Shown piece by piece: positions 3,499 through 35,200 of a stretch of 64,000 nucleotides of DNA. Made by a program: the position numbers and the translations under genes. The stretch's first letter is position 1, and every line of letters begins with the position of its first letter. The notes below the pieces were generated by a model. The model worked only from the letters and a program-made list of their open reading frames with translations, searched no databases and was not told where the DNA came from. The stretch lies in the sequence record NC_054932.1. One strand, given 5' to 3'. The DNA is from Escherichia phage teqdroes.

Positions 3499-3792
3499 AT
3501 GAAAAAATTTATTTTTGCTACAATTTTTACTTTGGCTTCTTGTGCTGCTCAGCCTGCTATGGCAGGATATGATAAAGATTTGTGTGAATGGTCTATGACT
3601 GCAGATCAGACTGAAGTTGAAACTCAAATTGAAGCGGATATTATGAATATCGTTGAGCGCGATCGTCCTGAAATGAAAGCTGAAGTGCAAAAACAACTTA
3701 AGTCTGGTGGTGTAATGCAGTATAATTATGTTCTGTATTGCGATAAAAACTTTAATAACAAAAATATCGTAACCGAAATCACAGGCGAATAA
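3499..3792 (+). CDS. sp: Spackle periplasmic protein (gp5 lysozyme inhibitor, superinfection exclusion)
   Basis: 97 aa with signal peptide MKKFIFATIFTLASCAAQPAMA; near-identical to T4 Sp as recalled. Confidence 0.9.
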   Translation: MKKFIFATIFTLASCAAQPAMAGYDKDLCEWSMTADQTEVETQIEADIMNIVERDRPEMKAEVQKQLKSGGVMQYNYVLYCDKNFNNKNIVTEITGE

Positions 3793-3793
3793 T

Positions 3794-4426
3794 ATGATTT
3801 ATTATATGCACAAAAATCCACCGTTTAAATACGGTAAATTTCCTGATGCACAATGTTATAATATAACGCCTGATGAAAATAACCGTGGATATCTTATTGG
3901 CACAATTTTTGTAATTGTTAAAGATAACGAAATCGTTGCCTGGGCAGATTTTAAAGGTACAACATATGATGTTAATCCGGTGCCTTTCACATATTACAAT
4001 TTAATGGATTTGGCATACGATTATAATTGGTTTAATCATGACACTTTGGCTCATATTGAAGGTGTAGGATTTGATATTTCATATTCGGAATACACTTTAA
4101 GCCCTATGAGTCGAGCCCATAAAGAACCTGAATATTTTTCATTTAGGAAACGTGTAAACTTTAAACGCAGCACAGAGTATGTCGGTGGAATCTTTGTTAA
4201 AGATAATCGAATTATTCGTATTAATTATCCTTTGAGCGTTAGTCAAAAAGATATTGATGTTGATTTAGATTTCACTGAAAATAATATTAATAATATTGCT
4301 TCTGTGTATTTTGGTATCGATCACAAAATTGTAATATGTGGATATGAATTACCGTTTGAAGAACAGCCTAAAGTAAAAGTTTCTATTGACGATCAAATTT
4401 TTAATGCTTTTATGAATAAAGGTTAA
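3794..4426 (+). CDS. hypothetical protein, 61.2 position
   Basis: 210-aa ORF with internal repeated G-x-I-F/V-V-x-KDN segments; C-terminal IDDQIFNAFMNKG is shared with the next ORF. Confidence 0.6.
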   Translation: MIYYMHKNPPFKYGKFPDAQCYNITPDENNRGYLIGTIFVIVKDNEIVAWADFKGTTYDVNPVPFTYYNLMDLAYDYNWFNHDTLAHIEGVGFDISYSEYTLSPMSRAHKEPEYFSFRKRVNFKRSTEYVGGIFVKDNRIIRINYPLSVSQKDIDVDLDFTENNINNIASVYFGIDHKIVICGYELPFEEQPKVKVSIDDQIFNAFMNKG

Positions 4427-31704: not shown

Positions 31705-31712
31705 TATTTATA
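31705..31712 (-). promoter_or_regulatory. late promoter (TATAAATA) for t
   Basis: Plus-strand TATTTATA about 20 nt upstream of the t start. Confidence 0.55.
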
Positions 31713-32259
31713 CGTAATGCTTGAATAAACGCTTATACCAAGGTTTCCGTTCTTTTTCAGGCCATGAAGGGAATTCACCACCTAAATGCTCATGCTTTTC
31801 TAAAAGAGCAAAGAACCGCTTAAGGTTTTTATAATAAAATTTTTCCTTTTTATTGGCGACAGAAGCTTCAATCATATTATTTAAAACTTGGAACTCTTTA
31901 TATAATTCTTCAATTTTTCTATTACGAATTAAAACTCGCTTATATGTTTCGTCTTCTTTCCAACCGTCATCAGTCCATATATCAAATTCGCCAGGCTCAT
32001 CAAAAGTTATACCAACCGGGCTTCCAATTTCACTTATAAAAATTTCTTCTTTATTAAAAGTCCATGCTCGTTTTCCGCGATGGTCTTCTTCATAAATCCA
32101 ATCCTGAGTACGTTCATCAAATACAACTGCATATCCTTCTTTAGGTTCTAAAGGTTTTTTAATTGTTGAATGAGCAGGAAGACCGAGGCCTTTAACCGGT
32201 TTGTAATTTTCTTCTTTGTAAAATTCTTTAGTGTCAAAATAATAATGATATATTTTCAT
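31708..32259 (-). CDS. 38: gp38 distal tail-fibre assembly chaperone (T4-type)
   Basis: 183 aa; matches T4 gp38 size; SD and AUG separated by a GGGGCTTCGGCCCC hairpin. Confidence 0.85.
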   Translation of the reverse strand: MKIYHYYFDTKEFYKEENYKPVKGLGLPAHSTIKKPLEPKEGYAVVFDERTQDWIYEEDHRGKRAWTFNKEEIFISEIGSPVGITFDEPGEFDIWTDDGWKEDETYKRVLIRNRKIEELYKEFQVLNNMIEASVANKKEKFYYKNLKRFFALLEKHEHLGGEFPSWPEKERKPWYKRLFKHYV

Positions 32260-32286: not shown

Positions 32287-35200
32287 TTATGCTAAACGAA
32301 CGATATAGTTAAAAGCAATGTTTTTAACCGTGTTTTCTGTATTACCTGTACTATTTACAGTGATAGTATGACCATGCGAGCCAATTGCTACCGTGTGGGT
32401 ATGAGCACCGATACCTACAGTATGGGTATGAGCACCAATACCTACTGTGTGAGCATGGTTACCTGTAGTGCTTGTAGTACCAGACCAAGTATGAGTATGA
32501 GCACCGTCTGAAGAAGTTTTGGCTATATTCGACCCTGCAGTAGCACCGTTCACGGTTCCAGTGAATTTAGCGTTGGCGTTTGCACCTACACTATTATATC
32601 CGTCATAGAATATGTTATTGGGTATGCCGGCTTGTATCTGAGGACCTGAGCGCGCATGTTGGTGTGCACCAGCAGAACTCGTAGTACCGCTTACAGTATG
32701 AGAGTGGTTACCTGTGGTATTGCTAGTCTTAGTGCCATAGTCAAAGCTACTTGTCGTCTTAGTACCATAATCAAAACTCGACGTAGTTTTAGTACCCAAG
32801 TCAGTACTTGAAGCCGATGCACTATGGCTATGAGCCTTAACACCATCGGCTTCTGCGCTTAATACAGCTCGACCACTTGGTTTACCTTTAATAGTTTGCC
32901 CGCGCATATCTGGAATTACGCCAGATGGGTAAGCCATAGCCAATTTTGGGTATGCAGACTTATCAAAAGTCTGGCCTTCCATAATAGCGTAACCGTCAGG
33001 AGGAGTATCCGTTGGCCATGGAATAGGAGCACCGATTGGGTAACTCGATACAATATCGGTTTTAAGTGATTCAATTGTACTGTTTAAATTAGCAAAATTG
33101 CCAGAACCACCTGTAATATTGCCGTCTGTACCTAAATAAACTGAACCACCAGCAGAAACACGCTTAGGAGATATAAAATCACCATTTTTGTTAAATTCCC
33201 AACCTAAATCCTTTATAATAGCGCCAGTCGAACCGCCATCGCCGCCTTCATGATAATGAACTCTGAAGTTACCGCCGTTAATTAGAGTTCCCAGAGAATA
33301 ACAACTGTTTCCTTGGACATATCGTTGTTTCAAAATAGGAACGTAAGTACTTGTATCTGTACGATTAATATTCATATAGAATGGAGCACGAACGTTTTCA
33401 TTATTTTGTGAAGCAAAAGACCCTGCACCAGCCGGGCGAACTGTGTCAGTACATTCAGCATCAATATAAGCTGCTTGTCCTACCTGCATACGGTAATTAG
33501 GAGAAATGCGACTATTACTAGTAACAACAACAAGTTTGGTATCGTTGTCCACAGTAATCATATTACCGCCAGCGCCATCATCGCCTAACGTAACAGAATG
33601 GCGCATTTGTACCATACCATTATTAAGACTAATACTAAGTGGGCGGAGATTACTTATTCCACCACTTTCACCGGCATCTTTAGGAGTCGGGATAATATGT
33701 AATGCTGTTTCTGAGCGACGGAAAATAGCACCGTATTCGGCATTCCAAATTCTTAATGCATCAGCAGTTCCACCAATTTTTACTTGTCCAGTAATAGAAG
33801 AACCACCTTGGACAAACAAACCATTAGACATGGTAACATTACCGACTAAAGTGCTTAATCCATTAACTTTAATACTTCCTCTAGCATTAACTTGTCCATT
33901 GAACTGGGTTACAACAGGCCCAGTAGTTTCAGAGCCACTTGGAGCCACACGCTGTGAATAAAAATAATATCCTTGTCCATCAGCTACTTCAAAAACCGTT
34001 TCACGATTACGATCGCCAGATGCGTTAAATGAATTACCCCATGCTTTAACAGTTACATAGCTTTTATTCTGACCAGCACGAGTACCGCCTTCCCACAAAA
34101 TTTTCTTAGTGCCATCAATTGTAGTAGTTGGAGCGAATGTTAGCCCAGCAGTAGAATTATTAGCTGCTAAATATATGCCATTATATATTGAAAGCTGCTT
34201 AACAGATGTAATACCGCCATCAGCATAAAACATTACATTATTAGAGCCAGTTACCAATTTCAAAATACCCGGGTTAACTTCCATGCCTTCTTGAGTATTA
34301 ATATTAGTTTTGCCTTTACCACGGAAATAGTGGTTCATTTTTCCGCCTGAGTTATAGCCAATATGCGTCTGGCCGTCTCCAGCAGTGTTTTCATCAGCTT
34401 GTGTTTGAACCGATAAAAACGCGGCGTTGGTTCCAGGCATAATCCATGTTGTACCTTGGTCCTCGGAACGACCAAAAATCGCTTTACGGGTACTACGGAA
34501 ACTATCAGGAGTAATAGATGCTAAAGAAAGACCACTAGCAACTAAATCATATACTCCAGTTTTTTTGTATGATAAGCCTGTTGATGCATCACCGATAACT
34601 ATATAACATTCGCCCATTGCTCCAGCGGAGCCGTAGTTATTAATGTTTTCATCTGTTGTAATTGTACCAATTGCGAGTGAGCGTCGTAATACTAAAGCCC
34701 CATCATTACGAAGACCCATTTGTTTATTAACGGCTGTATTACCAGTCCACCAAGAAAGTTCATCACTTTTTCCGGTTTGCGCAGAAGCTAATTCATGATA
34801 AATTGTACCGCCTGATTTAGCTCGAACTTTACGAAGATAGTTTATACCATTTTCTTCGCCTGTTCCAGGATAAACATATTGAACTAATGATTGCGAATCG
34901 TATTGTCCAAATGCTTTTGTATCTAAAATAATATTTTTAGTATTAATCTGAGGCGAAGTAATATTTCCAATAGCTGCAATATTTCCAGATGTAGTTATAC
35001 TACCTCCTGATACTGCTAAACCTCCACCGTCAACAGTAAATCCGCCGTCACGTCGAAACGTCCAATATTTCGAATCGCCAGATTCATTGATATAATGAAT
35101 CTTCAACGAACCTTCAGAAACTAAAGTACCTAATGAAAAAGTTCCATCTTTAAAGCGCTGTTTAATTATAGGATTATATTCAGATGTGGAAGTAGCTGAG

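Follow-up and report, generated by a model that had tools for sequence, protein, structure and literature searches.

The structure of the receptor-binding tip of T4 gp37 (PDB 2XGF) was reportedly described by Bartual et al. in 2010, and Montag, Hashemolhosseini and Henning are said to have given the sequence of TuIb gp37 in 1990 (J Mol Biol 216:327). The T4 tip is a six-stranded antiparallel needle, with a head formed by three intertwined chains (PMC9659904). Seven irons lie along this needle, buried on its axis and held by histidines from the three chains (H929 is one of the ligands), and they are required for folding (PMC6957217). Residues 933-959 of the T4 head touch LPS and OmpC, and mutations in the head alter OmpC/LPS binding (PMC6957217; PMC5221442). 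The receptors listed for related phages are OmpC/LamB for TuIb and OmpF for TuIa (PMC9659904), and infection by FelixPlatter (Bas40) depends on OmpC, as established by knockout and genetic complementation (PMC8594841). Korf et al. (2019) described seven to nine putative iron-coordinating His-X-His (H-x-H) motifs in gp37 of R5505, KAW1E185 and other phages, and related these fibres to 2XGF (PMC6563267). In phages of the T2/T6/S16 type, a separate gp38 of ~260 aa is the adhesin at the tip of gp37 (PMC3157838).

Results

The gene 37 locus

The stretch of DNA analysed here (64,000 nt, referred to as the window) is a segment of a Tequatrovirus genome, whose best match over positions 36000-60000 is phage 303Ecol101PP (98.3%); a tRNA scan found no tRNA genes in the 64,000-nt window. 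The gene order 36-37-38-t is that of T4, the T holin also being located downstream, and gene 38 starts 27 nt past the gene 37 stop (Table 1). The gp37 reading frame is unbroken over the full ORF, and the gene is 99.1-99.4% identical at the nucleotide level to those of FelixPlatter, KMB22, Ozark, teqhad, R5505 and others (99.4% to FelixPlatter, KMB22 and Ozark). An exact-sequence look-up in the protein collection returned no record of the 1085-aa protein itself.

An earlier reading made from the sequence only had proposed that gp37 is longer than its T4 counterpart and that gp38 is the 183-aa chaperone rather than the T2-type adhesin, and both proposals hold. The protein is 68% identical to T4 gp37 (NC_000866, 3081 nt = 1026 aa), and its excess of 59 aa is spread over the shaft (+22), the outgoing limb of the tip (+10), the head (+18) and the returning limb (+9); in the T4 alignment, both repeat arrays described below differ by one unit. 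The gp38 found here has 183 aa and is nearly the same protein as T4 gp38, and gp37 carries its own adhesin tip, in contrast to the arrangement in T2, T6 and S16.

Table 1. Fibre genes and mapped elements of gene 37 in the window, by position
Feature	Position	Strand	Basis
Gene 38, 183-aa fibre-assembly chaperone, T4 type	31708-32259	-	181/183 identity to T4 gp38, 182/183 to TuIb gp38
Gene 37, distal subunit of the long tail fibre, carrying its own adhesin tip, 1085 aa	32287-35544	-	ORF list; nucleotide match to relatives; T4 alignment
Conserved C-terminal tail	32290-32367	-	Last ~45 aa same in T4
His-box array, aa 1030-1059, four H-x-H 9 aa apart, returning limb (one box more than T4)	32368-32457	-	Tandem Repeats Finder; alignment
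First H-x-H of returning limb (H1016/1018)	32491-32499	-	Motif map
Head domain, aa 964-1015, 52-aa variable receptor-contact region, TuIb type	32500-32655	-	Variable alignment block; TuIb tip identity
H-x-H pair spaced 14 aa, outgoing limb (H947/949, H961/963)	32656-32706	-	H961/963 aligns with T4 H929/931
Two GTK units and degenerate third, aa 917-946, His-free, outgoing limb (one unit more than T4)	32707-32796	-	Tandem Repeats Finder; alignment
First H-x-H (H905/H907), needle base, outgoing limb	32824-32832	-	Aligns with T4 H883/H885
Collar domain, aa 838-885	32890-33033	-	Pfam PF07484, E=2.3e-11, 43.9 bits (cut-off 24); inside the 2XGF match
Junction of 18-nt in-frame deletion (ITDGSF lost after aa 558), shaft	33868-33875	-	Alignment with relatives
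Gene 36, distal hinge connector, 221 aa	35553-36218	-	Pfam PF03903, E=1.4e-42

Domains and motifs of the tip

Residues 808-1085 of gp37 match residues 2-242 of 2XGF with E=1.3e-95 (phmmer), so that the whole solved fragment of the T4 tip is covered. Eight H-x-H motifs start at residues 905, 947, 961, 1016, 1030, 1039, 1048 and 1057, three of them before the variable head and five after it, with spacings of 42, 14, 55, 14, 9, 9 and 9 aa. The last 186 aa contain 16 histidines, every one of them inside these motifs, and eight motifs were reached by none of 100,000 shuffles of that segment (maximum 7). The distance from the last H-x-H to the C-terminus, 29 aa, is constant in homologues. The motif positions computed for T4 are 883, 915 and 929 before the head and 966, 980, 989 and 998 after it, and the third of these is the published H929.

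Two tandem arrays flank the head. On the outgoing limb, two identical copies of a 10-aa GTK unit occupy aa 917-926 and aa 927-936, with a third, degenerate copy behind them at aa 937-946, and on the returning limb the boxes read HAHTVGIGA, HTHTVGIGA, HTHTVAIGS and HGH. Tandem Repeats Finder reports the His boxes with period 27 (2.6 copies, score 100) and the GTK units with period 30 (2.4 copies, score 83). The sequence-only reading had placed the H-x-H boxes at 32380-32480, close to where we find them; the GTK repeats, which it had given as about 2.5 copies at 32750-32840, are real but had been placed some 45 nt too high. In other records the same region bears a variety of labels: the His-box array is entered as a 'repeat_region' in those of teqhad (L002, 6113-6175) and teqskov, and the GiZh and ATK47 records carry an 'attP' and a 'StbAB binding site' over gene 37, which look like automated mis-annotations of the repeats.

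Allele and receptor class

The TuIb gene 37 record (X55191) contains only the 3' part of the gene, and the comparison with it is limited to the tip. Over the last 267 aa, 264 residues are identical to TuIb gp37 in a gapless alignment, the tip DNA is 99.0% identical and the unit counts are equal; the differences are three substitutions in the head region (F/I, T/S and N/S). The tips of FelixPlatter (Bas40), teqhad, Ozark, R5505 and KMB22 gp37 are 99.8-100% identical to that of the window, although these proteins have 1091 aa as compared with 1085. For Bas40, identity with the window is 99.8% over the tip DNA and 99.4% over the nucleotides of the whole gene. On the strength of its identity with TuIb and Bas40, the window fibre is predicted to be specific for OmpC.

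The two repeat arrays vary together

Tips were collected by a word-indexed protein search, from IMG/VR loci and by an exhaustive HMMER search of 1.84 billion cluster representatives, from which the best 150 of 836 hits were used. The first protein search returned mainly prophage side tail fibres and fragments, which were taken for tip architecture only. Since a regular expression for the GTK unit under-counts diverged units, H-x-H spacing was used as the measure, and it was taken in 193 tips that were complete and distinct. The distance from the first H-x-H to the second goes up with the number of 9-aa spacings on the returning limb: a gap of 32 aa is paired with two 9-aa spacings (97 tips), 41-42 aa with three (87 tips), 52 aa with four (5 tips), 62 aa with five (1 tip) and 73 aa with six (1 tip), a slope of 9.7 aa of gap per His box. 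The 14-aa H-x-H modules near the head also match on both limbs, with one on each side in 101 tips, none on either side in 89 and two on each side in 1. The total number of H-x-H motifs among homologues ranges from 4 to 10. Only two of the 193 tips break the rule; one (P0228) has merely lost its second motif, and the other, locus L004, is the one true exception.

Two further observations were made on this collection. Eight proteins (P0159, P0217, P0190, P0191, P0201, P0238, P0242 and P0048) have much longer needles: the 9-aa spacings number four to six or the 14-aa modules are doubled, the H-x-H motifs reach as many as 10, and the outgoing limb is extended to match in each of them. In addition, seven proteins that carry this collar-needle tip (P0032, P0038, P0040, P0057, P0058, P0063 and P0066) are named terminase large subunit or tape-measure protein; they carry an N-terminal PF05876 or PF09718 domain and may be fusions, mis-called ORFs or prophage annotation errors.

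Stability of the repeats, locus L004 and the shaft deletion

Among the best 60 phage records, the last 614 nt of gene 37 contain no indels and are 100% identical to the window in nine sequenced phages, R5505 among them. In a spread sample from further down the ranking, matches with the same head are colinear save for one of +15 nt. Altogether, ~100 phage genomes carry the allele with its copy number unchanged. The two identical GTK peptides are encoded by DNA that agrees at only 22/30 nt; all eight differences are synonymous, no exact repeat exceeds 8 nt, and the T4 unit is a better match to each of the two units (25/30 nt) than they are to one another. Because the units are so little alike and each is nearer to that of T4, the GTK duplication must be old. 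The His-box units are 22/27 nt identical, with a longest exact repeat of 14 nt at period 27. Copy number is therefore stable in close relatives, and the DNA units are neither long nor near-identical, contrary to what is expected of a hypermutable locus. The repeat polymorphism across isolates that the sequence-only reading anticipated did not appear when copy numbers were compared in the best 60 phage records.

Locus L004 lies on IMGVR_UViG_3300030021_000020, the contig that also holds L086. Its gp37 has 1076 aa and a TuIa-type head, and at L004 positions 3575-3810 exactly one 27-nt His box is missing between flanks identical to those of the window, so that two GTK units are now set against two 9-aa spacings. 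The junction was found in no other IMG/VR contig and in no isolate phage, and isolates including TuIa keep the box. Either this tip is a genuine but rare unbalanced variant, or the contig is misassembled; as it stands, the missing box indicates that a unit can be lost by unequal exchange or slippage.

In the window gene itself, a deletion lies in the shaft. The 18-nt segment lost at the junction listed in Table 1 is absent only from the window and is retained by all of the best 60 phage records. In the relatives, GGAAGTATT and GGAAGTTTT stand at the two ends of the segment as an imperfect direct repeat of 9 nt, on which such a deletion could plausibly arise. The length of 1085 aa, as against 1091, results from this 18-nt deletion and is unconnected with the repeats.

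Discussion

What the region encodes is very probably the TuIb allele of the tip with which a T4-type long tail fibre binds its receptor, with the two repeat arrays as paired halves of a needle and specificity confined to the head. The polypeptide would exit the collar and run outward along a thin needle, form a small head that contacts the receptor at its end, and then return along the needle to the C-terminus. Three such chains would intertwine, and by analogy with T4 each H-x-H, contributed by all three chains, would coordinate one iron on the fibre axis. The outgoing limb, with its His-free 10-aa GTK units, and the returning limb, with its 9-aa HxHxVxIGx boxes, may be the two halves of one and the same stretch of needle. 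Since the chain runs out and back along that needle, each GTK unit can be read as the partner of one His box, and the arrays appear to be paired structural modules that set needle length. The pairing rule follows naturally from the known fold.

The window has one rung more than T4, and an eighth metal site and a longer needle are therefore predicted: eight metal sites as compared with seven in T4, and a needle about one fifth longer (56 versus 46 residues from the first to the third H-x-H). An AlphaFold2 monomer model of aa 808-1085, built from a 74-sequence alignment, reached a mean pLDDT of 52 and a pTM of 0.22, the expected fold being an obligate intertwined trimer. Because this model is too poor for the purpose, the register between GTK units and His boxes proposed here is drawn from the counts only.

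The figure of 193 tips overstates the number of independent events, since the tips are related and recombine as blocks, and the co-variation of the arrays is in part shared ancestry. Ancestry alone, however, is a poor explanation, as it is hard to see how it would account for five copy-number classes combined with many different heads. We did not find the pairing rule in the searchable literature; the 2010 structure paper and the sequence papers of 1990 and 1996-98, which were outside this search, may have it.

We would tentatively go one step further, to a proposal that may well be wrong, and suggest that the needle of this widespread family of fibre tips acts as a ruler whose length changes only by whole rungs (two to six observed), each consisting of one GTK unit and one His box, and is perhaps selected for reach. 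Matched units, with the head between them, would be separated by ~300 nt, and a change of length would require two matched indels or the exchange of a whole tip. On this view L004 could be an uncommon intermediate with unbalanced limbs. Selection might act on needle length, together with the iron count, where receptors have to be reached through surface layers that vary in depth.

The sequence-only reading had seen in the repeats likely sites of slippage or recombination that would affect receptor specificity. In its strongest form, this would make them contingency sites, at which slippage or unequal recombination often alters copy number and shifts host range. A published title reportedly states that duplications in this part of T4 gene 37 expand host range, and to the extent that a title can, it offers a precedent. 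Conserved motifs in these fibre genes are also described as exchange sites (PMC3157838; Tetart 1996, by its title), and such exchanges would fit contingency as well. T4 and the window do differ by exactly one unit in each array, the His array does hold a 14-nt exact repeat at period 27, and L004 has lost one 27-nt box between otherwise identical flanks; that units can be gained or lost is the part of the claim that stands. Frequent change is a different matter. The tip is free of indels in the best 60 records, the same-head matches below them are colinear with the one exception of +15 nt, and the L004 junction is a singleton in IMG/VR, the box being retained in every isolate including TuIa. 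The GTK duplication is old, with diverged units separated by synonymous changes, and the strict pairing of the arrays argues for selection against changes in a single array. Copy number is also decoupled from the receptor: the counts are equal in TuIa (OmpF), TuIb (OmpC) and the window (predicted OmpC), whereas T4 (also OmpC) has one fewer of each unit, and copy number therefore does not set the receptor. Specificity resides in the head between the arrays, which is also the part of T4 that makes contact, and not in the repeats, and that portion of the earlier claim has to be given up. Contingency in this sense is unlikely. The arrays differ between lineages, yet as structural modules they are strongly constrained, and they do not serve as hot spots at which specificity is tuned.

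A second alternative gives the variable H-x-H count a role in iron itself: it would adjust how much iron the virion carries, or imitate siderophore-iron in the manner of a 'Trojan horse' for receptor piracy, and the extra box would have been selected for its iron and not for structure. Such a hypothesis has been published for fibres bearing H-x-H motifs (PMC11705849), and the range of 4-10 motifs among homologues would give it room. We consider it very improbable here: the near-identical Bas40 fibre uses the porin OmpC and not a siderophore transporter, the irons of T4 are required for folding and lie buried on the axis, and the His-free GTK units rise in number together with the boxes, as suits a constraint of geometry better than one of metal load.

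It is scarcely credible that errors of sequencing or assembly in repetitive DNA produced the length difference and the repeats. The 18-nt shaft deletion does occur in no other record, and the sole unbalanced tip comes from a metagenome contig. Against this, nine phages sequenced independently of one another have the very same tip DNA (100%), the 1990 Sanger sequence agrees with it at 99%, the reading frame is intact throughout, and the shaft deletion keeps the frame and has an imperfect direct repeat at its borders, as a real deletion would. With these nine genomes and the Sanger record in agreement, an assembly artefact was also rejected as the source of the copy-number difference from T4.

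We return to the reading of the arrays as paired halves of a needle, and to what it may be good for. Published work already covers this allele and the class of receptor it uses, what the H-x-H motifs do, and how their number varies (7-9) in T4-like coliphages, and the discovery value of the locus, a known allele of a well-studied adhesin, is small. For the engineering of fibres, however, the practical lesson is to change both arrays together, and to swap the head and not the repeats in order to retarget a phage. The strict pairing seen over 193 tips provides a testable design constraint for chimeric fibres based on the T4/lambda Stf tip.

Finally, the tip can be set beside those of its known relatives. 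With T4 gp37 it has in common the collar, the H-x-H needle, the presence of a head, the C-terminal ~45 aa, the gp38 chaperone and the predicted primary receptor class, OmpC; T4 differs in having seven H-x-H motifs as against eight, with one GTK unit and one His box fewer, a head that is 18 aa shorter and unrelated in sequence, and a shaft with a net difference of 22 aa. The OmpF-specific TuIa gp37 (X55190) is identical to the window in needle architecture and unit counts, and differs in its head sequence and in the porin that it recognizes. The side tail fibres of lambdoid prophages (the Ur-lambda Stf family) share the last ~215 aa, namely the collar, needle, head and H-x-H boxes, and obey the same rule of paired unit counts, whereas their N-terminal shafts are short and unrelated, their chaperone is of the Tfa type, and their heads and receptors are others.
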